Shown piece by piece: positions 5,195 through 64,000 of a stretch of DNA of 64,000 bases. A program made the translations under genes and the position numbers. Positions within the stretch are counted from its first letter, which is position 1; the number at the start of each line of letters is the position of its first letter. The stretch lies in sequence record NC_019505.1. One strand, given 5' to 3'. The notes beneath the pieces were generated by a model, which was not told the DNA's origin, ran no database searches, and saw only the letters and a list, made by a program, of their open reading frames with translations. Origin of the DNA: Escherichia phage wV7.

Positions 5195-5270
5195 TGGTCG
5201 AGGCAGTAGGGATCGAACCTACGACCTAGGACTTAGAAGGTCCTTGCTCTTCCTTCTGAGCTATGCCCCG
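5195..5270 (-). tRNA. tRNA-Arg (anticodon UCU)
   Basis: Hand-folded cloverleaf: acceptor CGGGGCA/TGCCTCG, anticodon loop CUUCUAA, T-loop TTCGATC, CCA encoded. Confidence 0.85.
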
Positions 5271-5274
5271 TAAT

Positions 5275-5350
5275 TGGGGTGACCGATGGGAGTCGAACCC
5301 ATGACTACGAGAATCACAATCTCGAGTTCTACCAACTGAACTACGGTCAC
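5275..5350 (-). tRNA. tRNA-His (anticodon GUG)
   Basis: Cloverleaf: acceptor GTGACCG/CGGTCAC, discriminator C, anticodon loop TTGTGAT, T-loop TTCGACT, CCA encoded; no G-1 encoded. Confidence 0.75.
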
Positions 5351-5464
5351 ATTAATACCTACTCCAACAATCAAGATGTCTTCACACGAAATTAAGAGAA
5401 GAGTGATCAGTTCAACCCCTATAATCGCGTCAAGTAGATATTAATGTGACAGTTGTCACAAATT

Positions 5465-5539
5465 TGGCGGACGTGATAGGATTCGAACCTATAACCAATC
5501 GCTTAACAGGCGATCGCTCTGCCATTGAGCTACACATCC
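5465..5539 (-). tRNA. tRNA-Asn (anticodon GUU)
   Basis: Cloverleaf: acceptor GGATGTG/CACGTCC, D-stem GCTC/GAGC, anticodon stem ATCGC/GCGAT with loop CTGTTAA, T-loop TTCGAAT, CCA encoded. Confidence 0.8.
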
Positions 5540-5543
5540 AAAT

Positions 5544-5630
5544 TGGTGGGGAGTGGTGGAGTCGAACCACCCGAGTCGCAATGACAATGAATTTACAGTC
5601 CACACCGCTACCTCTACGGGATAACTCCCC
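5544..5630 (-). tRNA. tRNA-Tyr (anticodon GUA), class II long variable arm
   Basis: 87 nt; acceptor GGGGAGT/ACTCCCC; anticodon loop CUGUAAA as in bacterial tRNA-Tyr; variable-arm hairpin; D-arm could not be resolved cleanly by hand. Confidence 0.6.
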
Positions 5631-5642
5631 TAATTCATAATT

Positions 5643-5717
5643 TGGTGGCCCTGGGTGGAATTGAACCACCATCTGGCGATTATGAGTCGCTTGCTTGAAC
5701 CTTCCAGCTACAGGGCC
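5643..5717 (-). tRNA. tRNA with CAU anticodon (Met, or Ile if lysidine-modified)
   Basis: Cloverleaf: acceptor GGCCCTG/CAGGGCC, anticodon loop CTCATAA, T-loop TTCAATT, CCA encoded; occupies the position of the T4 tRNA-Ile gene. Confidence 0.75.
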
Positions 5718-5718
5718 T

Positions 5719-5794
5719 TGGTGCTGATTGACGGAATCGAACCGCCGACCTTCTCATTACAAGTGAGTTGCTCTACCTACTGAGCTAAATCAGC
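5719..5794 (-). tRNA. tRNA-Thr (anticodon UGU)
   Basis: Cloverleaf: acceptor GCTGATT/AATCAGC, anticodon loop CTTGTAA, T-loop TTCGATT, CCA encoded. Confidence 0.8.
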
Positions 5795-5799
5795 AAAAC

Positions 5800-5889
5800 T
5801 GGCGGAGGTGATAGGATTCGAACCTATGAATCGCCGGAGCGACTGCCGGTTTTCAAGACCGGTGCATTCAACCACTCTGCCACACCTCC
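5800..5889 (-). tRNA. tRNA-Ser (anticodon UGA), class II
   Basis: 90 nt; acceptor GGAGGTG/CACCTCC, anticodon stem CCGGT/ACCGG with loop CTTGAAA, long variable arm, T-loop TTCGAAT. Confidence 0.8.
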
Positions 5890-5891
5890 AG

Positions 5892-5965
5892 TCTCCATAC
5901 AAGGATTTGAACCTTGGACCTCCTGATCCCAAATCAGGCGCTCTACCAAACTGAGCTACACGGAG
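5892..5965 (-). tRNA. tRNA-Pro (anticodon UGG), 3' CCA not encoded
   Basis: Acceptor CTCCGTG/TATGGAG, anticodon stem CCTGA/TCAGG with loop TTTGGGA, T-loop TTCAAAT; 3' end abuts tRNA-Ser 5' end with CU instead of CCA. Confidence 0.8.
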
Positions 5966-5975
5966 TAAATTAAAT

Positions 5976-6049
<74 letters not shown>

Positions 6050-6054
6050 AAATT

Positions 6055-6141
6055 TGGTGCGAGAAGTGGGACTCGAACCCACAAGGAAATCATTCCGCAG
6101 CATTTTAAGTGCTGTGCCTTTACCAATTTGACCATTCTCGC
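6055..6141 (-). tRNA. tRNA-Leu (anticodon UAA), class II
   Basis: 87 nt; acceptor GCGAGAA/TTCTCGC, anticodon stem CAGCA/TGCTG with loop CTTAAAA, long variable arm, T-loop TTCGAGT. Confidence 0.8.
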
Positions 6142-6142
6142 G

Positions 6143-6215
6143 CTGGGAATAAAGGACTCGAACCTTTGCATCTAGCAGTCAAAGTGCTATGCCTTACCAA
6201 CTTGGCTAATTCCCA
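6143..6215 (-). tRNA. tRNA-Gln (anticodon UUG), 3' CCA not encoded
   Basis: Acceptor TGGGAAT/ATTCCCA, anticodon stem TAGCA/TGCTA with loop CTTTGAC, T-loop TTCGAGT; one nucleotide separates it from tRNA-Leu (dimeric precursor arrangement). Confidence 0.8.
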
Positions 6216-55198: not shown

Positions 55199-57256
55199 CT
55201 ACATTTTGAACTTTTTAGACATTCCGTTGATGTTAACCAAAGAAGCTAAGATTTGAGAAACTTCGTTTTCCTCTTCTTTTGATTCTTCTACAAGGAATTG
55301 ATTAAATCCAGCCATTGGACGAACTTCACCAGTTTCCATTAGATGGTCGCCATCATATACTGATTCTTCTAATTGTTCAGAAGGAGGAACGATTGTACCT
55401 TCGATTAGATACTTGTTATAAGCAGTTTCTTTCATAAAGTAAGTACTTACTTTATTAATCTTCAGTAAAATTCCACGTGGTAGAATAACTTCAGCTTCTG
55501 ATGGAAATCCTGACAAATGACCTGGAACGATAACTTTAACTCGTTCAGCTCCTTTAATTACCATACCCACGCTAGTTTCAGCATCTTCATTAGCATATGT
55601 AGAATGACTACCCATATGCATCAAATCTTCTGCATCAACGGAACCTTCTCCTTCACCAGAAAATACTGCTCCGGAATTATCTAAGGCCATATAATTTTTA
55701 CCATACTCACCAAAGATATTTGGTTTAAGTGATGTCGATACGAAGTTCTTGAAATAGAACATTTTATTTTCAATGTTATGACGCAAAGTTTTAAAAGTAA
55801 CTTCTTGTCCACGGTAAAGTGTAGTTCCTGGAGGAAGAACTGAACCTTTAGCGAATGCAGAATCCAGCGTCTCAATATGTTTAATAGCTCGTTCCATATA
55901 TTCTTCACGTGTAGAATCAGGTTTACCTAAAAGGAATGAGTTCATTTCAACATACGAATCTGCGCAATAATCTTCAATTACATCAGACTCAGCCTGAGTC
56001 AATCCTTTTGGAGTTACTTCAGTGCTTGCATATTCATACGCCTGAGCAGCGGATTCATCAATTAATTTATAAATGCCATTCATGACAAATTGAATAATAG
56101 CTGTCTTTTCATCTGGCGTAGCTTTAGAACCTTTAACTAAATCATTGACAATTTTCTTAATAACATCAAAGCTATTAGAAATATTAATGTCAGCAAGATC
56201 GCTTAAAATTTTATCAGTTTTATAATCAAAAAATTCTTTATTCTTTAAATATTCTTGAGAACTTTGATATGTTATATCGCTCTGCAACTTGATAGATGGA
56301 TCACGTAAACGTGCATGGGCTAATGCAATATGATTTCGGAAGCTTTCTAGTTCATAATCGTTAGATTTAAAACGAGAAGCACTTCTCATACCACCGATAG
56401 CTCCTTTGCTGAAGTTTGAACCAATCTGAATAACGCCAGAGTTCATTGGTCCTTCTGCTTTATATACCGGAACTTTAGATTCAAACTCTTGATATTTCTT
56501 AGCAGCGAAGCTATCACCCTGAAGTGAAGCATCAACAGTAGAATATTGAGCTTGTGCTGCTAATCGACGGCTAATTTTAGTTTTCTGAATAACAGCTTGA
56601 TCCGTACGCTTATCATTTTCTAAAGCAATAGAAGCAGCAACTGCGACAGCTTTAGGAACAGCATTACCTGTTTTAACGTCTACATAAACATCACCAACCT
56701 TTGATTCAACTTTTGTGAATAACTCAGTTGAAATAGGAGGTACACCTGGAATGTCTTCTAAATTGGCATTTTTACGGTAAACCATAATATATGCATATTT
56801 CTTATCATAGTCCCAGATTTCCTTTAAAAGAACATATCGACCTGCTCCTTTAGTACGTACTAAACGGTCAGCAATAACTTGCATTTGACGAGCAGCGCCG
56901 TTTGTTTTACTTTTTAGTACGCGGAATAGGCATGCATCAATTTTATACTGTTTCATTGTTTGAAGAGCAGTATCAAAAACCGCATTAATGACGCCAATTG
57001 GATTTCCACCCAAGTTTTTAAGCTTAACTAACGATAATTTCTCGTTGACGCCTATCATTACGATATGCATCATTTTGTCGCCTGGCTTAACGTTTTTATT
57101 CGTATCACCGCCAGAGGTGTATGTACAAAATCTAAATCCAGGAAGCACGCTTTCTTCACCGGCTTGAATAGCAAAAATTTGTGGTATTTTATGCTTAGGA
57201 TTTAAGTTAACAACCGGCGCCGAAGCGCCGTCAAATAATTCTGTAATAAGTTCCAT
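55199..57256 (-). CDS. Alt-like ADP-ribosyltransferase paralog
   Basis: 685 aa; N-terminus MELITELFD... and C-terminal region with Arg / S-T-S / E-x-E triad (YRGQ, FVSTSL, SEAEVILPRG); about half the residues are shared with the adjacent 697 aa gene. Confidence 0.8.
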   Translation of the reverse strand: MELITELFDGASAPVVNLNPKHKIPQIFAIQAGEESVLPGFRFCTYTSGGDTNKNVKPGDKMMHIVMIGVNEKLSLVKLKNLGGNPIGVINAVFDTALQTMKQYKIDACLFRVLKSKTNGAARQMQVIADRLVRTKGAGRYVLLKEIWDYDKKYAYIMVYRKNANLEDIPGVPPISTELFTKVESKVGDVYVDVKTGNAVPKAVAVAASIALENDKRTDQAVIQKTKISRRLAAQAQYSTVDASLQGDSFAAKKYQEFESKVPVYKAEGPMNSGVIQIGSNFSKGAIGGMRSASRFKSNDYELESFRNHIALAHARLRDPSIKLQSDITYQSSQEYLKNKEFFDYKTDKILSDLADINISNSFDVIKKIVNDLVKGSKATPDEKTAIIQFVMNGIYKLIDESAAQAYEYASTEVTPKGLTQAESDVIEDYCADSYVEMNSFLLGKPDSTREEYMERAIKHIETLDSAFAKGSVLPPGTTLYRGQEVTFKTLRHNIENKMFYFKNFVSTSLKPNIFGEYGKNYMALDNSGAVFSGEGEGSVDAEDLMHMGSHSTYANEDAETSVGMVIKGAERVKVIVPGHLSGFPSEAEVILPRGILLKINKVSTYFMKETAYNKYLIEGTIVPPSEQLEESVYDGDHLMETGEVRPMAGFNQFLVEESKEEENEVSQILASLVNINGMSKKFKM

Positions 57257-57259
57257 GAT

Positions 57260-59353
57260 TTATCCTTGAACGAACTTGTAAGGCATGTTTGTAATATCTA
57301 TGCAAGACGCAATAATTCCAAGAGATGATTCTACTTTCTGTTTAACATTTGATGAAACAAATGATGCAAAGTCAACTCTGTCTTCTATTTCAATATCACC
57401 TGTCATTGCAACCAATTCACCAGTTTCCATTAAATGGTCTCCGTCATAGATTACCGATTCGGTGAGCTCTTCCGTGGTCATAACTTCAGCTTGAATGAGT
57501 TTTGTATTATTAGATGTTGTTCCGTCATTATTAGAAGCATCAGTTATTTTATTAACTTTGACCATCAATCCACGCGGTAGAATAACTTCAGCTTCTGTTG
57601 CTATTCCGAGACTTCCTGGATATACAACATTAACTTTATGAGCTCCATCAATTGCCCATCCTATTTGAACTTTAACGTATTCAGGATTTTCTTTATACGC
57701 TCTTATTTCGTTTGGATTAATAGTTATTCCTTCTTCATTTTTATCAACTGTTAATTCATTGCGAGCTTCTGGTTCTAAAAGACCAATACCAGCATGTGTG
57801 ATTCCAAAACGTCCAAAAATGATAGGAGTTAAAGAAGTAGATACAAAATTTCTGAAGTAGAACACTTTATTTTTAACTAACGCTTCATATATAGGAGCAG
57901 TCATACTTTGAGCACGATAAACTGTGATGCCTTCCGGTATGCGGTCACCATTTTCAAAAGCTGAATCTAAGTTATTTATAGCAGATTCAATTTCTTTTTC
58001 ACTCATTACATCATATCGTTCTGGATTGTAACGACCTAAAAGAAGATTATTGATGTCAGTATATCCTGAACCGCAATATTCTCTAATGCCACGCTTTTGT
58101 GATGGAGTATATTTAGAACCATCGCGGGCAATAGTAATATCAATCATTGGACCAGCACCAATTCCAGAAAAACTGTAAATCATTCGTTTGAGGAATTTAG
58201 TTTTTGCTGCGTTCCAGGAATTTTTAGTTATTTCTTCCCAGACTTCATCTGGTTGTCCTTTACGATTTTTATTATGATTAGCAAGCCATTTATCTTTATA
58301 ATCTTCAAAGAATTGATTTACAGCTGCTGCGTATTTCTCTAAACATTTTATTGAAGTAGTTGGTTCATTTTTAATTGCATTAAAAATTACTTCTTTAATT
58401 TTTTCTGAAACTTCACCGACTTGACTCATTGGAAAGAATTTATAATCATAGTGAAGTTCATCTGCCGTTCCTTCAGCAATAATTTTTGCTGCCTTTGTTT
58501 TAGAAGCTAATGAATTAATTCCAATTTTCATTTCTTCTGCTTCGGGAATTAAAGGTGCAGTAGCTGGTTTATTAAAATTAGCTGCTGTAGATTCATACTT
58601 CTGGAATAATTCACTTTCAAATCTAGAAGATTCCAATGACTGACTTTGTGCAATTGCTCTACGGGAAATTTTAACTTTAACGATTACGGCTTGGTCAGAA
58701 CGTTTATCATTTTCTTGTGCAATAGATGCAGCAATTGCCTCATTTTTGGTTACTTGAGCTCCAGTATCTTTATTGATATAAACATCACCGACCTTCGATT
58801 CAACTTTAGTAAAGAGCTCGGTGCTAATTTCTGGAACTCCTGGAATGTCTTCTAGTGATACATTTTTACGATGTATAAGAATATATGCATACTTTTTATC
58901 GTAATCCCAGAGTTCCTTAAGAAGGACGTATCTGCCACCTGAACGACTACGGATAAGTCTATCAGCAATAACTTGAATTTGTCGAGCTTGGCCAGCAGTT
59001 TTAGACTTAAGAATACGAAGCATACAAGCATCAATTTTATATTGACGCATTGTTTGCATTGCAACAGTAAAAACTGAATTGATATAATTAATTGGGCTTG
59101 GACCAAGACCTTTTAATTTAGCAATTGAACCTTTAGCAGTTAATGTAAAAGGAACAATGTGCATCATTTTGTCGCCCATTTTTAAATCGCGATTAGTATC
59201 ACCTCCAGATGTATATGTACATAAACGAAAGCCTGGTTGTTCAATTGCATCATCAACATGAACTGAAAAAATTTGTGGTATTTTCTTCTTTGGATTTAAG
59301 TTTGTAATCGGAAGAGTAGTATCTTCGTCAAATAATTCTGTAATAAGTTCCAT
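57260..59353 (-). CDS. alt: Alt ADP-ribosyltransferase (head-packaged, injected)
   Basis: 697 aa from ATG at 59353 (SD GAGAGG 5 nt upstream; an in-frame ATG at 59356 is also possible); Arg / S-T-S / E-x-E motifs (YRAQ, FVSTSL, TEAEVILPRG); late promoter upstream. Confidence 0.8.
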   Translation of the reverse strand: MELITELFDEDTTLPITNLNPKKKIPQIFSVHVDDAIEQPGFRLCTYTSGGDTNRDLKMGDKMMHIVPFTLTAKGSIAKLKGLGPSPINYINSVFTVAMQTMRQYKIDACMLRILKSKTAGQARQIQVIADRLIRSRSGGRYVLLKELWDYDKKYAYILIHRKNVSLEDIPGVPEISTELFTKVESKVGDVYINKDTGAQVTKNEAIAASIAQENDKRSDQAVIVKVKISRRAIAQSQSLESSRFESELFQKYESTAANFNKPATAPLIPEAEEMKIGINSLASKTKAAKIIAEGTADELHYDYKFFPMSQVGEVSEKIKEVIFNAIKNEPTTSIKCLEKYAAAVNQFFEDYKDKWLANHNKNRKGQPDEVWEEITKNSWNAAKTKFLKRMIYSFSGIGAGPMIDITIARDGSKYTPSQKRGIREYCGSGYTDINNLLLGRYNPERYDVMSEKEIESAINNLDSAFENGDRIPEGITVYRAQSMTAPIYEALVKNKVFYFRNFVSTSLTPIIFGRFGITHAGIGLLEPEARNELTVDKNEEGITINPNEIRAYKENPEYVKVQIGWAIDGAHKVNVVYPGSLGIATEAEVILPRGLMVKVNKITDASNNDGTTSNNTKLIQAEVMTTEELTESVIYDGDHLMETGELVAMTGDIEIEDRVDFASFVSSNVKQKVESSLGIIASCIDITNMPYKFVQG

Positions 59354-59376
59354 CATAGCCTCTCTAGTGTTTATTC

Positions 59377-59384
59377 TATTTATA
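59377..59384 (-). promoter_or_regulatory. late promoter TATAAATA (minus strand) for alt
   Basis: Exact TATAAATA on minus strand about 21-24 nt upstream of the alt ATG, preceded by a UUCG hairpin. Confidence 0.5.
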
Positions 59385-59405
59385 AAATTAAAGGCCCGAA
59401 GGCCT

Positions 59406-59594
59406 TTAGTAATCTAGTGGTAAGAGAGTACGATATATTTCAAACTTTGGTCCTTTTTCATAGGCATCAAATGTTTCTGTAAATTTATTGTAAGCATATG
59501 CATCTACAAATTCGAGAATGACTTGTGATACAGAAGTAGAAACATCTCCACCTTCTTTTTGAGCAATGACAATTGTTTCTAAGTAAGCTTTCAT
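59406..59594 (-). CDS. hypothetical protein (alt.1-like)
   Basis: 62 aa ORF whose ATG overlaps the ligase stop. Confidence 0.45.
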   Translation of the reverse strand: MKAYLETIVIAQKEGGDVSTSVSQVILEFVDAYAYNKFTETFDAYEKGPKFEIYRTLLPLDY

Positions 59595-61054
59595 AAACCA
59601 GTTACCTCATGAAAATCGCCAAATACATCCTCGAATGTATTAGCTTTAGTTTTATCTTCACGTAAACGAATCGCAATCGGAAGAAATAATTTAACGTAAT
59701 CAGTGCGGCCATCAGATTTTAACCAACCGTTGCATTCGCACTCTAGAATTTTTCCAATATAATAATTTTGGTTTTCCATAATGCGAGTACGGTCAAGTTC
59801 ATGCGATTTTACACCAGCTTTATCTTTTAAGCCTGAACCAGCATTTACTTTAATTTTTCCACACTCTGACTCAAGAATAAATCCACCCGCTTTAGTAGGG
59901 TCTTTACGGTGAGGATAAATTCCTACAATTTTTAAATCAACATCAATTACTTCTTTAAATTTATAAAGATTTTTTGAACGAGCATTTTCCCATAATCCAT
60001 CGATATTTTTGAGAATAATACCTTCAAGACCTTGGTCAATATACTTTTTATAAATTACCTTAGCTTCATCTAGGTTATTTACTACCTGGTTTTCAATTAA
60101 AATTACTTTATCATAACCTGATGTCATTTGTTCTAGTTTAGAAAAACGTACATCATATTTCAAACGAAATGCAGGAAGACCGTATATTTCTACCAACGGG
60201 ACATAATCCCAGACCTGAAACTTCATGCATTGAGCTTCTTTTTCAGAAATGGTTCCCTTTAAAGATTTATTAGCGATTCCATTAGAAGTAGTACGTGATT
60301 CAGCTACTTCGGCGAATTCTTTAGCTTTACTAATTTCAGGATAAGCATCAAAAAGAAAATCTAGGCCTTCTGGTTCCTTTTCAACTTGCTCATGGTATAC
60401 CAATTCGCCATCAATTAACACACCTTCTGGATGAATCTGGCGAGCTTCTGCAGTCATTTTGATTAACTCTTCCTTGAGAAGATCTAATCCTAGATATTCA
60501 TTACCAGCTCGTGATAAAAGACGAACATCATCTAATTCATCACCTCTGACTTCAGCAAAGCACCGAGCTCCATCAGCTTTTAACTGCGCAAAAGCTGGAA
60601 ACTTGATATTCTTACTAATGCCTTTTTCATCATAAGAACTTGCCAGCATTTGAGGTTGTTCAGGAATTAAACCTGGCCAAACTTTGTTTGCAATAGATAC
60701 TGAAGCACCGCATTCAAGGTCTCGCATCATCACCCGACGCAAAACTTCAACATCATCTTTTTTACCGTCAGCAATATATCCAGTTAATTCCTCAATTGCC
60801 GCATTTCCGGTCAATTTCCGAGTAGCTAACGTGAATTCAATGAAGTCAAGCATATCGGTAAGAGTCAACATTCCAAAACTCTGGGTAGCAATACCAGGTT
60901 TAGGCCATTTCTTGATATAATACTGTAACCCACGAGAATAAGTCAGACGATATACTCGTTTAAGCAATTCATTATCTTTATTCTTTTCAAGAATTGCTTG
61001 CTTCTGCTTAGTTGAACCAATAGATGCTATTTCGTTCAGAATTTTAAGAATCAT
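59591..61054 (-). CDS. 30: ATP-dependent DNA ligase (gp30)
   Basis: 487 aa with adenylation motif KADGAR and further nucleotidyltransferase motifs. Confidence 0.95.
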   Translation of the reverse strand: MILKILNEIASIGSTKQKQAILEKNKDNELLKRVYRLTYSRGLQYYIKKWPKPGIATQSFGMLTLTDMLDFIEFTLATRKLTGNAAIEELTGYIADGKKDDVEVLRRVMMRDLECGASVSIANKVWPGLIPEQPQMLASSYDEKGISKNIKFPAFAQLKADGARCFAEVRGDELDDVRLLSRAGNEYLGLDLLKEELIKMTAEARQIHPEGVLIDGELVYHEQVEKEPEGLDFLFDAYPEISKAKEFAEVAESRTTSNGIANKSLKGTISEKEAQCMKFQVWDYVPLVEIYGLPAFRLKYDVRFSKLEQMTSGYDKVILIENQVVNNLDEAKVIYKKYIDQGLEGIILKNIDGLWENARSKNLYKFKEVIDVDLKIVGIYPHRKDPTKAGGFILESECGKIKVNAGSGLKDKAGVKSHELDRTRIMENQNYYIGKILECECNGWLKSDGRTDYVKLFLPIAIRLREDKTKANTFEDVFGDFHEVTGL

Positions 61055-61320
61055 TGTTCATCCTTTAGAGTTTGGTTTACAGCTCTATTATAAATCAATT
61101 CATCATTAAGCTCAGTCAAAGACTTGTGGTACGTGGTTCTAACTTTATTTCCTTGCATCCAGTGCTTGACGTAAATGAAACCTTGCTCTACACATTTTTT
61201 AAAAATTCGTTCGTCTTTTTGAGCTCGGAATTCTGGATTGCATCTAAAAAATTGATTTACGTGACCGTAATCACGTGTAGTATTACCTTCATTTTCATAA
61301 ATAGTATGAACAACAAACAT
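61051..61320 (-). CDS. hypothetical protein (30.1-like)
   Basis: 89 aa ORF, ATGA overlap with ligase start. Confidence 0.5.
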   Translation of the reverse strand: MFVVHTIYENEGNTTRDYGHVNQFFRCNPEFRAQKDERIFKKCVEQGFIYVKHWMQGNKVRTTYHKSLTELNDELIYNRAVNQTLKDEQ

Positions 61321-62156
61321 TAGAATGCTCCTTGGAAAATATTATCACCACTAGTAGGTCTATTATACAAATACTCTATGCCACCGGGTTTAATATAGTT
61401 CCATGTCTGAAACGGATGCGTCTGATATGGATGATATAGATTATAAGGATTAAATCCAGGAGTTCTCCAGGTAGTGTTCCAAGGAAAAGAATCGTTTTTA
61501 ATCATCTTTTCAATTACATCTTTTATAGCTTTTTCACTATCAAAACTTTCTTTATTTTCCTTCGATGGAAAAAGCTTATTCTCTACATCATTCCATGTAT
61601 AAACTCGCTGCGCAGTTTTTGGAATACTGTCACGCTCCCCTCGAGCCATCCAATAAACAGGAACATTTAATATTTCACTCGCGTGATCGCAGTGGTGAGC
61701 GAGATCGTCAATATAACAAATTACGTTATATTTCTCTTTTGCCTTTTTGAACAACTCTTCTTTTGAAGAATCATGACCACACATCAATACTTCTGAGAAG
61801 GCACCAGGAAAAAGAGCATTCAAATTAAATTGACGATTTAGCAGAGCGTCAATAGAATCACCCAATGCTGTAACAGCTACAAAATTATAATCTTCTTTTA
61901 ATTTGTTAATTACACACAGGGCATCTTTATACGGAGACAAGTAACGAATAAAATCTGAACGATTATACTTTTCGATTAATTTAACACCAAGTTCTTCATC
62001 GCAATTAAAGAGCTTACCAGGAGAAATAAATTTTTCGTCCTGAATCATTTTTAAAATATGTTCCAACGGAAGATTATATTTTTGGGCAAAATAAGGAAGG
62101 CCCGATTGCCAGCTTAAACACACCCCGTCAATATCAGTCAAAATAGTAGGCTTCAT
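61320..62156 (-). CDS. HAD-superfamily phosphatase-like protein (30.2-like)
   Basis: 278 aa; N-terminal ILTDIDGV matches HAD motif I (DxDx[T/V]). Confidence 0.6.
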   Translation of the reverse strand: MKPTILTDIDGVCLSWQSGLPYFAQKYNLPLEHILKMIQDEKFISPGKLFNCDEELGVKLIEKYNRSDFIRYLSPYKDALCVINKLKEDYNFVAVTALGDSIDALLNRQFNLNALFPGAFSEVLMCGHDSSKEELFKKAKEKYNVICYIDDLAHHCDHASEILNVPVYWMARGERDSIPKTAQRVYTWNDVENKLFPSKENKESFDSEKAIKDVIEKMIKNDSFPWNTTWRTPGFNPYNLYHPYQTHPFQTWNYIKPGGIEYLYNRPTSGDNIFQGAF

Positions 62157-62611
62157 AGAGAGTCTCTTAATAGGTTTAACACATCAATAAATTCAGCTTC
62201 GGTTAGTATTGTATCATCTTTTGTTAGACCACTAGCCATGCTATGCTTCAAAACTTTTCCTTTCGAGGCTAGTAATGCATCACGAAAGCCCTTGTTTTGA
62301 ATCGCTGCTTCAAAATATGCATTTGTGTACAACTCTTTCCACGCTGGTGAGTATCTTGAAAACGGAACTCCAAGCCAGAAGAGGGTCCCACGGTCCTGAG
62401 CTCTTGCATAAGACCTTCCAGCTTGTTGGGCGGCAAGTCCGGATAACCCAAATATACGTCTTTGCTGCTCAACATTTTTCACCTTGCACCCTTGGAGAAA
62501 TCCTTCAAGACCTCCAAATTGGATACCATCCATAACAAAAGGCCATTGAGCGAAATTACTTAATGCACACGATGGCCATCTAAAATTGCTTCTAATCTCT
62601 AACTCAGGCAT
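62153..62611 (-). CDS. YbiA-like (DUF1768) protein (30.3-like)
   Basis: About 152 aa; ALSNFAQWPF...DGIQFGGLEGFLQGCK resembles YbiA/DUF1768 core; track start is TTG, first ATG at 62611. Confidence 0.55.
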   Translation of the reverse strand: MPELEIRSNFRWPSCALSNFAQWPFVMDGIQFGGLEGFLQGCKVKNVEQQRRIFGLSGLAAQQAGRSYARAQDRGTLFWLGVPFSRYSPAWKELYTNAYFEAAIQNKGFRDALLASKGKVLKHSMASGLTKDDTILTEAEFIDVLNLLRDSL

Positions 62612-62810
62612 TTTCAATGCTTATAATTTCAACATCAGCCCAATGACCATAGCAAGGAAGACGAAATTCAACTGGCCAGTTAGGGTCCTTTTCTAATATA
62701 ATAGACTTAACTTGTGGTTCTTCATGTTCATCAGTATATGGATTTTTATCTGTTACTTTATATGTGACCTTAATGTACTGAATTCCAAAAATCTTATTAA
62801 TTATATTCAT
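62604..62810 (-). CDS. hypothetical protein
   Basis: 68 aa ATG-start ORF in tightly packed early operon. Confidence 0.45.
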   Translation of the reverse strand: MNIINKIFGIQYIKVTYKVTDKNPYTDEHEEPQVKSIILEKDPNWPVEFRLPCYGHWADVEIISIENA

Positions 62811-63004
62811 ACTAATTCCTTTAATCCGTAAATAGGAGATAATTCATCACCCATACGAAGGTCTTCATTTCCATCTACCCAGGAAACAATATAAGCCTCT
62901 TTTATTTGAACACCACTCCATTTAAATGGAGGTAGAACCTTAGAAATTAATCCAGGTATACCAACTCCCTTTAATTCAACAGTTTGACCTAAAAAGAATT
63001 TCAT
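62807..63004 (-). CDS. hypothetical protein
   Basis: 65 aa ATG-start ORF, overlapping stops/starts with neighbours. Confidence 0.45.
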   Translation of the reverse strand: MKFFLGQTVELKGVGIPGLISKVLPPFKWSGVQIKEAYIVSWVDGNEDLRMGDELSPIYGLKELV

Positions 63005-63291
63005 CAGAACCTCATCTGAAAGCCATGTGATTTAACATTACCGCCGCCAATATCAGAAATATTAATTTCACGCGCAATTGAAGGGTCAATGTCAATTTCA
63101 CGATTAAGTTTAGCGATAGCTAAAGTATCACGCCCATTTACTGTACGGAATTCTAAAGGACAAACCACATCAACATAATTTTTAATCGATTCACTGGTAG
63201 GTTGCAAATGAGCAGGAAGGTCTTTAGGCGCCTTAGAGAAAACAACTTCACAGAAATTTTTGCGGGTATCAAAATAAGTAGTCATAAACAT
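63004..63291 (-). CDS. hypothetical protein
   Basis: ATG at 63289-63291 preceded by GAGG; the longer track ORF would run through the UUCG hairpin at 63308-63323. Confidence 0.45.
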   Translation of the reverse strand: MFMTTYFDTRKNFCEVVFSKAPKDLPAHLQPTSESIKNYVDVVCPLEFRTVNGRDTLAIAKLNREIDIDPSIAREINISDIGGGNVKSHGFQMRF

Positions 63292-63307
63292 AGTATTTTC
63301 CTCAGTA

Positions 63308-63323
63308 AGGGGCCGAAGCCCCT
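63308..63323 (-). other. intercistronic GGGGC-UUCG-GCCCC hairpin (minus-strand RNA)
   Basis: Perfect GC stem with UUCG tetraloop between two minus-strand ORFs. Confidence 0.45.
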
Positions 63324-63331
63324 GTTTTATT

Positions 63332-63697
63332 TTAAATATCAAATTCGTTAAGAACTACATCAAAGATTGCTTCAAGATGCTCAGGTTTAGCTCTGTTACT
63401 CAGAATATGACGAATCCAAGTTTTAACCAAAAGCTTGCGATTATCACCATTCCAGCAAGGATGAGTCCCTAAATCGCGTTGACGAAAATCATCATCCAGA
63501 GCGATTTTGAAGTTTGAACCTTCCATTGTGATTGAAACCGTGATGCCATTTTCAAATCGCATATAAACGTAGTTAGGAGTCATATACTGTTCAATTTCGC
63601 ATACTGATCCATTTTGATGTTTCCAAAGGCAGATAGTATCAATAGAACCTGCAATACCATTAGAAACATATTTACGTTCAAAGTTGATGTAGTTCAT
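63332..63697 (-). CDS. hypothetical protein
   Basis: 121 aa ATG-start ORF. Confidence 0.5.
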   Translation of the reverse strand: MNYINFERKYVSNGIAGSIDTICLWKHQNGSVCEIEQYMTPNYVYMRFENGITVSITMEGSNFKIALDDDFRQRDLGTHPCWNGDNRKLLVKTWIRHILSNRAKPEHLEAIFDVVLNEFDI

Positions 63698-63765
63698 TTT
63701 TATTCTCCGAGATGTTTAATTGCGGTACAGGTATATAATATCATATCCTGTACCAAAGTAAACAA

Positions 63766-63975
63766 TTATTTTACTACTTTCCAGTGCTTCATGTCAAGTT
63801 TACCAACTTTTTTCATCTTCTCAATCAAACGTTCGGCACGTTGGCGAGCTGTAACATAATACCATTCGCCTAATTCATTTTGTTCAATTTTTCCAACGAT
63901 TACTGTATTCAATTCATAAATCCAACCAGTAAAGAAATTATGAACTTGAATTGTAAAGGTGAAATCTGTTCCCAT
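63766..63975 (-). CDS. hypothetical protein
   Basis: 69 aa ATG-start ORF near window end. Confidence 0.45.
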   Translation of the reverse strand: MGTDFTFTIQVHNFFTGWIYELNTVIVGKIEQNELGEWYYVTARQRAERLIEKMKKVGKLDMKHWKVVK

Positions 63976-64000
63976 ACCTTCTGTTGTTTCTACTTCAATA

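Follow-up and report, generated by a model that had tools for sequence, protein, structure and literature searches.

Two neighbouring open reading frames beside the DNA ligase gene of a T4-like phage, one with a phosphatase motif and the other resembling the YbiA (DUF1768) proteins, raise the question of whether their products work together or act independently. The frames occupy positions 61320-62156 and 62153-62611, both on the minus strand, of the window, i.e. the whole stretch of 64,000 nucleotides of Escherichia phage wV7 (NC_019505.1) analysed here. This stretch, from a Tequatrovirus, has 100% identity to E. coli O157 typing phage 7; the two frames are T4 genes 30.2 and 30.3. A preliminary description had treated them as a gene pair involved in nucleotide or ADP-ribose metabolism, or in the processing of nucleic-acid ends. 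The reading favoured here, on which we would place somewhat better than even chances, is that the region contains two adjacent, co-transcribed genes acting separately, gene 30.3 encoding AdfN and gene 30.2 a nucleoside monophosphate phosphatase.

Both genes are part of a closely packed run on the minus strand. Gene 30.4 (62604..62810; 68 aa; phrog_2042, E 7e-35) overlaps the start of gene 30.3 (62153..62611) by 8 nt. The stop of 30.3 and the start of 30.2 (61320..62156; 278 aa plus stop; phrog_420, E 7e-93) overlap by the 4 nt ATGA, and a TAATG joins the stop of 30.2 to the start of gene 30.1 (61051..61320; 89 aa; DUF3045, Pfam PF11243, E 1e-63); both overlaps were read directly from the sequence. 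Gene 30.1 lies between 30.2 and gene 30, which encodes the ATP-dependent DNA ligase (59591..61054; 487 aa; Pfam PF01068, phrog_114). Such tight overlaps are common to the whole run 30.4-30.3-30.2-30.1-30. Directly after alt.1, a terminator-like hairpin (59389..59408, minus strand; an 8-bp stem and a T-run, identified by pattern match only) is probably where the 30.x-30-alt.1 transcription unit ends. Two Alt-type ADP-ribosyltransferases are encoded on the same strand by alt (57260-59356) and by its full-length paralogue alt.-2 (55199-57256), the pair matching Pfam ADPrib_exo_Tox with E-values of 1e-37 and 7e-20. The ligase and the two transferases are thus nearby, as the preliminary description had pointed out, with 30.1 intervening on the ligase side, but genes 30.3 and 30.2 had been placed downstream of the transferases, whereas in the order of transcription they lie upstream of both the ligase and the alt genes. 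An Rfam scan of positions 59000-64000 detected no RNA family, and a promoter scan yielded no more sites than were found in shuffled sequence.

Gene 30.3 is almost certainly adfN. Its product has 152 aa counted from the ATG, which is the start in the RB51 and T4 annotations, whereas the open reading frame listing prolongs it to a TTG at 62617. It matches Pfam PF08010 (Phage_30_3) with E 3e-70 (235 bits, for a cut-off of 36), and 14 of the 36 members of its family also match the Pfam NADAR family PF08719. A PDB profile search with this family gave YbiA (2b3w) as the sole match, and the top three PDB fold matches of the AF2 model (pLDDT 93) were YbiA 2b3w, 8bau and 8bat, the fold matches comprising YbiA, PnNADAR and the G. 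lovleyi NADAR. The resemblance to YbiA/DUF1768 noticed earlier is therefore right at the level of the fold, and the profile searches and structure prediction that had been named as checks recovered both a NADAR fold for 30.3 and a HAD fold for 30.2. Under a strict definition of the YbiA family, gp30.3 lacks the glutamate of the last strand; in its place stands His123 (62245-62243), which, like E36 (62506-62504), is invariant in the 36 homologues, K43 (62485-62483) being at least 90% conserved. E36 and K43 are catalytic in AdfN-T4, and the last-strand histidine marks the phage branch (PMC11125620). The C-terminal helix, required for AdfN and lost in the inactive RB69 allele, is complete in the model (residues 138-151 of the full-length 152 aa).

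The T4 protein strips ADP-ribose from guanine in DarT1-modified DNA (PMC11825919, PMC11125620). Both genetics and in-vitro de-ADP-ribosylation have been published for it (PMC11825919), and the anti-DarTG1 role of gene 30.3 was reported in 2024-2025. Judging from its identity to the T4 protein (149/152, i.e. 98%), the allele in the window would have the same function. It would be a NADAR-fold N-glycosidase that cleaves the linkage of ADP-ribose to guanine N2 in DNA, and would undo the action of the host toxin DarT1, allowing the phage to replicate in DarTG1 cells. Because the 98%-identical AdfN acts on DarT1-modified DNA, the target is a product of host defence; gp30.3 was not found, and has not been reported, to be linked to the phage Alt enzymes encoded nearby. 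The earlier statement that the substrates are unknown is thus out of date for 30.3. This gene adds nothing new, and the original observation is mostly already known.

Gene 30.2 encodes a protein with 271/278 identity to T4 gp30.2 that is, with high confidence, predicted to be an active HAD phosphatase. Its N-terminus is MKPTILTDIDGVCLSW, in which DIDGV, taken from the outset for HAD motif I, forms residues 8-12 (62121..62135) and is part of ILTDIDGV (residues 5-12), the motif coming directly after a hydrophobic first strand. The motif is real. D8 and D10 (62135-62127), the predicted nucleophile and acid/base, are invariant both in the close family (alignment A1, 42 homologues) and in a broader remote alignment (A3, 84 homologues), and G11 is invariant in A1. 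In the gp30.2 family, K132 of motif III (61763-61761) is invariant, and T96 of motif II (61871-61869) and D150-D151 of motif IV (61709-61704) are at least 90% conserved. A chance DxDxV pentapeptide can be ruled out, because D8 and D10 are invariant and the other three HAD motifs are conserved. The AF2 model has a Rossmann-like HAD fold, with the core and a four-helix C1 cap occupying residues 1-195 (61572..62156; pLDDT above 90). Motifs II-IV lie at or adjacent to the ends of strands 91-96, 120-125 and 145-150, and the cap helices (16-26, 32-40, 46-49 and 54-65) lie between motifs I and II. The protein would act as a Mg2+-dependent phosphatase in which D8 attacks the substrate to form an aspartyl-phosphate and D10 serves as acid/base, with T96 and K132 holding the phosphate, D150 and D151 holding the metal, and the cap closing over a small substrate.

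The remainder of gp30.2 is a C-terminal extension (61323..61571, residues 196-278) consisting of a helix (207-220) followed by a Pro/Trp-rich tail predicted to be disordered; residues 225-278 have a pLDDT of 40-65, and the end of the tail reads GIEYLYNRPT... The extension is missing in 47 of 100 homologues, and a motif of the type G[IVL]EY...[QR]PT is present in about 20 of the 53 long forms. The tail, to speculate, probably tethers the enzyme to another protein. The gp30.2 domain is also found in fusion proteins (P0264, P0318, P0216, P0254, P0198 and others), the extra regions of which contain no Pfam domain and so provide no functional hint. The gene context of P0264 was uninformative.

Searches of Pfam, NCBIfam and the PDB with the single gp30.2 sequence gave nothing significant, and profiles were needed: the protein in the window does not match Pfam NT5C even at E<=1 and reaches no HAD or NT5C threshold in Pfam or NCBIfam. 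By an E-value cut-off, not the gathering threshold, NT5C (PF06941) is matched by 6 of the 42 close members and by 39 of the 84 remote ones (best E 4e-10), and the relative from locus L072 scores 24.0 bits against PF06941, for a cut-off of 24.8. In the PDB, the close-family profile has one match, the deoxyribonucleotidase cdN (2jao, E 0.023), restricted to the N-terminal 100 residues, and the remote profile matches 3bwv, a putative 5'(3')-deoxyribonucleotidase from S. epidermidis, over its full length (E 3e-6). Comparison of the close family by hhalign gave a probability of 58% with 3bwv and 99.4% with the near-NT5C protein of L072. The profile neighbours are mostly NT5C and other nucleotide phosphatases (3bwv, SSM1/SDT1, XMP phosphatase, mdN, cdN). 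W16 aligns with the aromatic residue of cdN eight positions past the nucleophile, a residue that presumably stacks on the base in cdN and mdN.

Since the closest characterised relatives of gp30.2 are the NT5C 5'(3')-deoxyribonucleotidases, hydrolysis of a (d)NMP is the likeliest reaction, and we put the chances that the substrate is a nucleoside monophosphate at about even. The enzyme would convert (d)NMP to (deoxy)nucleoside and Pi, and would thereby adjust or clean up the pool of nucleotides while phage DNA is made. T4 reuses host-derived dNMPs for its own DNA, and a general dNMP phosphatase is hardly what one would expect in such a phage. R108 and N111, invariant in the family, are not shared by 3bwv and could point to a different or additional substrate group. 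No enzymatic data or published substrate for gp30.2 were found in the searchable literature, in which the gene is named only in a figure legend of the AdfN paper, and in the accessible part of Iyer et al. 2022 the NADAR domain is not connected with a HAD phosphatase.

The distribution of these genes in other phages bears on whether they belong together; linkage was counted by sampling loci from both sides, and one full genome (RSP15) was examined. Of 69 loci with a 30.2 homologue, 68 have the ligase gene downstream of it, at a median distance of 240 bp, and no other neighbour is linked to 30.2 as consistently. Gene 30.3 directly adjoins 30.2 in 18 of these 69 loci and is within 5 kb in 32; adjacency is seen in T4, T2, RB-type phages and several Acinetobacter and Aeromonas relatives, and in many T4-like genomes the NADAR gene and 30.2 are about 60 kb apart. 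Viewed from the other side, a relative of 30.2 occurs no more than 6 kb away in 18 of 80 phage NADAR loci and is lacking there in 62, and the complete genome of RSP15 encodes a gp30.3-type NADAR and no gp30.2-family protein. These last counts, the 60-kb separations and RSP15 leave the idea of a functional pair unsupported, and it is quite likely that 30.2 and 30.3 do not form an obligate module. Phage records carrying 30.2, 30.3 and the ligase number 1451, 1509 and 1753, respectively, with parallel genus profiles, and 30.2 and 30.3 look like quasi-core T4-like genes, although 30.2 is labelled "hypothetical protein" in nearly all of the sampled records. Remote gp30.2 relatives, sampled singly, occur in heterogeneous contexts (UvsY, ribonucleotide reductase, PhoH/Acb1, bacterial chromosomes).

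Among the other roles that can be proposed for gp30.2, the one that survives best, unlikely as we consider it, is that of a counter-defence nucleotidase, which would use up a nucleotide precursor or remove phosphate from a nucleotide that is toxic or acts as a signal, as in the case of T5 Dmp. This phage HAD-type dNMP phosphatase is a proven anti-Kongming factor that blocks the Kongming system by removing dAMP, and its homologues co-occur with phage dNMP kinases. T4 encodes a dNMP kinase, gp1, and gene 30.2 is located in an early region with many host-takeover and anti-defence genes (adfN, alt), one distant relative being found near an Acb1-family gene. However, gp1 of T4 does not, to our knowledge, phosphorylate dAMP, so the Kongming logic is not directly transferable to T4, and gp30.2 and Dmp are unrelated beyond motif I (hhalign probability 2%). 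A literature search revealed no genetic or biochemical link of gp30.2 to any defence system, and the Kongming preprint contained no match to the T4-related terms searched.

It is slightly less probable that gp30.2 is a polynucleotide-end phosphatase, removing 3'-phosphates from nicked or broken DNA and thereby readying the ends for the ligase. The position of the ligase just downstream in 68 of the 69 loci, including that of a 248-kb Schizotequatrovirus, fits this role, as does a locus (L160) in which the ligase comes first, the flanks are EndoVII, PhoH and UvsY, and the HAD gene is still no more than 700 bp from the ligase. This adjacency is weak evidence, since T4-like genomes tend to keep their gene order and the loci are related by descent; more distant gp30.2 relatives are found without a ligase, beside ribonucleotide reductase, PhoH or UvsY genes or in bacterial chromosomes. 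Matches to polynucleotide-kinase phosphatases are weak (phrog_415, E 0.004; HAD_PNKP in one of the 84 remote members, versus NT5C in 39). The cap speaks against such an activity: the polynucleotide and protein HAD phosphatases known to us are capless, a C1 cap is typical of small-molecule HAD enzymes, and gp30.2, rather than being capless in the manner of PNKP and PseT, has, in a model of high confidence, four helices (residues 16-65) inserted between its motifs I and II. Furthermore, T4 already encodes a 3'-phosphatase, PseT. The suggestion of ADP-ribose metabolism or end processing therefore stands in its first part, for 30.3, whereas end processing has become less likely for 30.2, given its C1 cap and NT5C relatives.

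About equally improbable is a non-nucleotide small phosphoester, such as a sugar phosphate, phosphoglycolate or a cofactor phosphate, as the substrate. The NCBIfam matches of gp30.2 are generic HAD-IA ones only, and R108 and N111 are specific to the family, but the profile neighbours are mostly NT5C and other nucleotide phosphatases, W16 aligns with the putative base-stacking residue of cdN, and 30.2 is surrounded by genes of DNA metabolism.

Least likely of all, and very unlikely even when its two variants are taken together, is cooperation of gp30.2 with AdfN, either as a T-even factor or by disposing of a phosphorylated compound left when ADP-ribose is removed (ADP-ribose phosphate, say, or the ribose-5-phosphate or AMP released by Nudix cleavage). 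The 4-nt overlap indicates translational coupling of 30.3 and 30.2, and the direct adjacency or proximity of the two genes in some of the loci, their nearly equal distribution at genome level and a distant HAD gene 700 bp from a NADAR gene (L105) are all consistent with cooperation. AdfN-T4 fully rescues RB69 but not T5, Bas25 or uninfected cells; its authors proposed that it may require another T-even protein, and gp30.2 could be such a partner, which might bind through its disordered tail or remove a phosphorylated by-product. Every gene in the run has the same tight overlaps, however, and 62 of the 80 NADAR loci are without a 30.2 relative within 6 kb, many T4-like genomes have the two genes about 60 kb apart, and RSP15 has the NADAR without a gp30.2-family gene. 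In vitro, purified AdfN-T4 needs no partner for its activity, nor do other phage NADARs require a cofactor. NADAR hydrolysis appears to yield intact guanine and free ADP-ribose (as deduced from PMC11125620 and PMC11825919), so that a phosphatase step is chemically unnecessary. By our own estimate, roughly a hundred further genes specific to T-even phages would qualify just as well. It is most improbable that gp30.2 is the T-even-specific factor behind the dependence of AdfN-T4 on T-even infection. Were it so, the HAD phosphatase and the NADAR of T4-type phages would form a unit of two enzymes for removing ADP-ribose from DNA.

With separate action of the two proteins as the preferred reading, the remaining value of the locus lies in 30.2, a predicted catalytically intact HAD phosphatase carried by about 1450 sequenced T4-like phages, nearly always by the ligase gene. 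Knowing its substrate would supply a missing piece of T4 nucleotide metabolism, which is otherwise well mapped, and could bear on the host-range-like specificity of AdfN or on counter-defence at the nucleotide level, as in T5 Dmp.

T4 AdfN and gp30.3 of the window are both 152 aa long, are both encoded between 30.4 and 30.2, and share E36, K43, H123 and an intact C-terminal helix; gp30.3 differs from the T4 protein by P2S, L114Q and M125I, none at reported catalytic positions. With the DarG1-type NADARs and YbiA (PF08719; 8bat, 8bau, 2b3w), gp30.3 shares the alpha+beta NADAR fold (Foldseek TM 0.56-0.67) and the ExF..K active-site motif, and the ADP-ribosyl-guanine adduct that AdfN hydrolyses is also the substrate of DarG1. 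The last-strand residue differs, being His in the phage gp30.3 branch, Glu in YbiA and Asp in DarT-linked NADARs (PMC11125620). YbiA itself has been described as an N-glycosidase of riboflavin intermediates. Unlike DarG1, gp30.3 is the product of an orphan gene without a DarT partner, and AdfN-T4 cannot substitute for DarG1 in uninfected cells.

Like gp30.2, T5 Dmp is an early protein encoded by a phage and has a DxDGT/V motif I; as a proven dNMP phosphatase, it provides a functional precedent. It has no Pfam hit and a different setting, in the first-step-transfer DNA, and was rejected as an orthologue, since the hhalign probability of 2% covers 34 columns around motif I. The phosphatase domain of T4 PseT (1ltq, 5uj0) is capless and fused to a kinase, whereas gp30.2 lacks a kinase domain and is capped by four helices, and the similarity in sequence is marginal (the phrog_415 match). 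The best profile and Foldseek matches of gp30.2 are to NT5C (PF06941; human and mouse cdN and mdN; 3bwv). Although it differs from these enzymes in its own invariant residues (W16, S18, Y64, S67, D78, N84, R108, N111, F116-P117 and R172), in its additional 80-aa C-terminal extension and in falling below the Pfam threshold, gp30.2 resembles them in its HAD core and C1 helical cap, in a domain size close to theirs (about 170-200 aa), and in a DxDGVL motif with an aromatic residue at +8.

Over its last 5 kb, the window shares 100% identity with E. coli O157 typing phage 7 (Tequatrovirus) and 97–99% with many phages of the T4 type. By comparison with the annotated RB51 and T4 records, the two ORFs are genes 30.2 and 30.3; gene 30.2 (61320-62156, minus strand) encodes a 278-aa protein with the N-terminus MKPTILTDIDGVCLSW and 97% identity to T4 gp30.2, and gene 30.3 (62153-62611, minus strand) encodes 152 aa counted from the ATG, with 98% identity to T4 gp30.3. 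This annotation and these identities therefore confirm the two ORFs of the preliminary description. They lie in a minus-strand run, 30.9 ... 30.4-30.3-30.2-30.1-30 (ligase)-alt.1, followed by alt and alt.-2; their proximity to the ligase and alt genes was correctly reported, with the clarification that, on this strand, they are transcriptionally upstream of both. Whereas a partial alt duplication has left only short pieces, alt.-1 and alt.-2, in T4, alt.-2 is here a full-length second Alt paralogue (55199-57256, minus strand; 685 aa) with an ADP-ribosyltransferase domain (E 7e-20). A 68-aa ORF in another frame within gene 30.3 (62269-62475, minus strand) is the counterpart of 30.3' in the T4 annotation ("internal translation in a different frame"). 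Elsewhere in the window, 11 tRNA genes are clustered at 5195-6215 (minus strand: Arg, His, Asn, Tyr, Met, Thr, Ser, Pro, Gly, Leu and Gln); T4 has eight tRNA genes.

Searched as a single sequence, gp30.2 matched only phrog_420 (function unknown), with no significant Pfam or NCBIfam family. Homologues are nevertheless abundant: a first search gave 100 clusters, and an exhaustive one 1399 representatives at E<=1e-3. D8, D10, G11 and K132 are invariant in 42 close homologues, and conservation is 90% or higher at T96, D150 and D151. D8/D10, T96, K132 and D150/D151 constitute HAD motifs I to IV, bearing out the HAD motif I originally proposed for this ORF. D8, D10, R108 and K132 remain invariant in 84 remote members (22–40% identity). 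Residues 1-195 of the AlphaFold model are confident (pLDDT >90), with the HAD strand order and, following motif I, an inserted C1 cap made up of four helices (residues 16-65). Foldseek returned 113 PDB matches at E<=1e-3, the best 50 of which are all HAD-type hydrolases, and structure prediction thus agrees with a HAD fold. The best superpositions listed include the cytosolic and mitochondrial 5'(3')-deoxyribonucleotidases (cdN and mdN) and the S. epidermidis deoxyribonucleotidase-like protein 3bwv. Residues 196-278 (61323-61571, minus strand) form one helix followed by a Pro/Trp-rich tail predicted to be disordered. This extension is missing from 47 of 100 homologues; of the 53 long forms, roughly 20 have at their end a short conserved motif of the G[IVL]EY...[QR]PT type, which could serve in docking to a partner.

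Sequence profiles do separate the HAD-type candidates. The close-family profile had a single PDB match, mouse cdN (E 0.023), and the broad profile found 3bwv first, aligned along the full length (E 3e-6), with other nucleotide phosphatases after it. Pfam NT5C (PF06941) was matched by 39 of the 84 remote members, and hhalign aligned the close-family profile with a near-NT5C relative (L072) at a probability of 99.4%. Judged from these profile matches, gp30.2 forms a divergent branch next to NT5C and, by the Pfam threshold, is not a member. An aromatic residue eight positions past the nucleophile in cdN aligns with W16 of gp30.2; in cdN and mdN, this residue stacks on the base. R108 is invariant and N111 nearly so in the remote members (61835-61824, minus strand), neither is found in 3bwv, and the two may bind a family-specific group of the substrate. 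In a standard HAD cycle, D8 would attack the phosphate and D10 would protonate the leaving group, with T96 and K132 holding the phosphate, D150/D151 holding Mg2+ and the cap enclosing a small substrate. A (deoxy)nucleoside monophosphate is the most probable substrate, at about even odds; a non-nucleotide substrate, for a protein placed beside these nucleotidases, is improbable.

The gene 30.3 protein matches Pfam PF08010 (Phage_30_3) at E 3e-70, and E36, H123 and several other columns are invariant among 36 homologues, 14 of which also match NADAR PF08719. E. coli YbiA is the sole PDB match of its profile, and the three best PDB matches of the AlphaFold model (pLDDT 93) are YbiA (2b3w) and the Phytophthora (8bau) and Geobacter (8bat) NADAR proteins, so the earlier "YbiA/DUF1768-like" label is correct at the superfamily level. 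The statement that substrates are unknown fails for this gene, as the function of the T4 homologue has been published. T4 gene 30.3, renamed adfN, is required for T4 resistance to the toxin-antitoxin defence system DarTG1 and is enough to rescue RB69; purified AdfN strips ADP-ribose from DarT1-modified DNA, and rescue of RB69 is only partial with E36A, K43A or a protein lacking the C-terminal helix, which the natural RB69 allele also lacks (PMC11825919). An independent study found de-ADP-ribosylation to be guanine-specific, with the last-strand residue being His in the phage branch, Glu in YbiA and Asp in DarT-linked NADARs (PMC11125620). The window protein retains E36, K43, H123 and a complete C-terminal helix, and should be a functional AdfN. 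It would cleave the ADP-ribose-guanine N-glycosidic link in DNA, as published for the 98%-identical protein, and so neutralize DarT1.

The stop codon of 30.3 and the start codon of 30.2 overlap (ATGA), as do 30.4/30.3, 30.2/30.1 and 30.1/30; tight packing is therefore not peculiar to 30.2/30.3. A strong terminator-like hairpin (59389-59408, minus strand; 8-bp stem and T-run) lies immediately 3' of alt.1, and the layout suggests a single 30.x-ligase-alt.1 transcription unit, apart from alt, ending there. In 68 of the 69 sampled viral-contig loci that have a close homologue of 30.2, a same-strand ligase lies downstream (median gap 240 bp). This linkage is kept in a 248-kb Schizotequatrovirus and in a rearranged T4-like locus (L160, 3922-6591, plus strand; EndoVII-PhoH-ligase-two small ORFs-30.2 homologue-UvsY), in which the ligase comes first and the HAD gene lies less than 700 bp from it despite an order and flanks unlike those of T4; it is gone in more distant relatives. 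The sampled loci are phylogenetically non-independent and gene order is conservative in T4-like phages; ligase adjacency is therefore weak functional evidence, and gp30.2 is unlikely to be an end-healing partner of the DNA ligase.

The proposed 30.2-30.3 gene pair is not supported by genome comparison. A gp30.3-type NADAR lies upstream in 32 of the 69 loci, directly adjacent in 18, and only 18 of 80 viral-contig loci with such a NADAR have a 30.2 relative within 6 kb. The two genes are about 60 kb apart in several genomes (for example, loci L016 and L104 of one contig). The Ralstonia phage RSP15 genome, complete and the one whole genome checked for joint presence or absence, carries both a gp30-type ligase and a NADAR of the gp30.3 type but no gp30.2-family gene; it has just a canonical NT5C enzyme elsewhere. 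At the RSP15 loci L172 (12439-12966) and L173 (37884-39233), both plus strand, that deoxyribonucleotidase adjoins DprA-like and MazG-like genes, and the ligase is labelled merely hypothetical protein (phmmer E 1.5e-29). On a metagenomic phage contig (L094, 5905-7753, plus strand), a gp30.3-type NADAR directly upstream overlaps a gp30-like ligase, with no HAD gene between. On a 166-kb phage contig (L105, 4736-6456, plus strand), a distant HAD protein (E 2e-19 against the gp30.2 profile; no Pfam match) precedes a gp30.3-type NADAR by about 700 bp, in the order opposite to T4 and with no ligase nearby, and may represent another, independent neighbourhood of HAD and NADAR genes. Phage records with 30.2, with 30.3 and with the ligase number 1451, 1509 and 1753, respectively, with parallel genus profiles, as is expected for quasi-core T4-like genes. 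Given the same non-independence and conservative order, the 30.2-30.3 adjacency is therefore read as lineage-specific synteny. The AdfN authors, finding AdfN-T4 fully active in T-even infections only, proposed an unknown T-even protein; the comparative data make a partnership of gp30.2 with AdfN unlikely as a general rule, and it is very doubtful that gp30.2 is this protein.

Gene 30.3 is, thus, already known and functionally characterized. Gene 30.2 is a catalogued T4 ORF, a "hypothetical protein" in nearly all sampled records and occasionally a "putative phosphatase" or "HAD-superfamily hydrolase"; the literature on this gene or its product yielded no published substrate. It is a member of a known enzyme kind, and specialists will find no surprise in either gene. 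As a nucleotidase, gp30.2 could balance nucleotide pools (e.g., by forming a substrate cycle with the thymidine kinase of the phage), remove unwanted nucleotides or act in counter-defence. A precedent for the last of these is T5 Dmp, a phage-encoded dNMP phosphatase that blocks the Kongming defence system; motif I aside, Dmp is unrelated to gp30.2.
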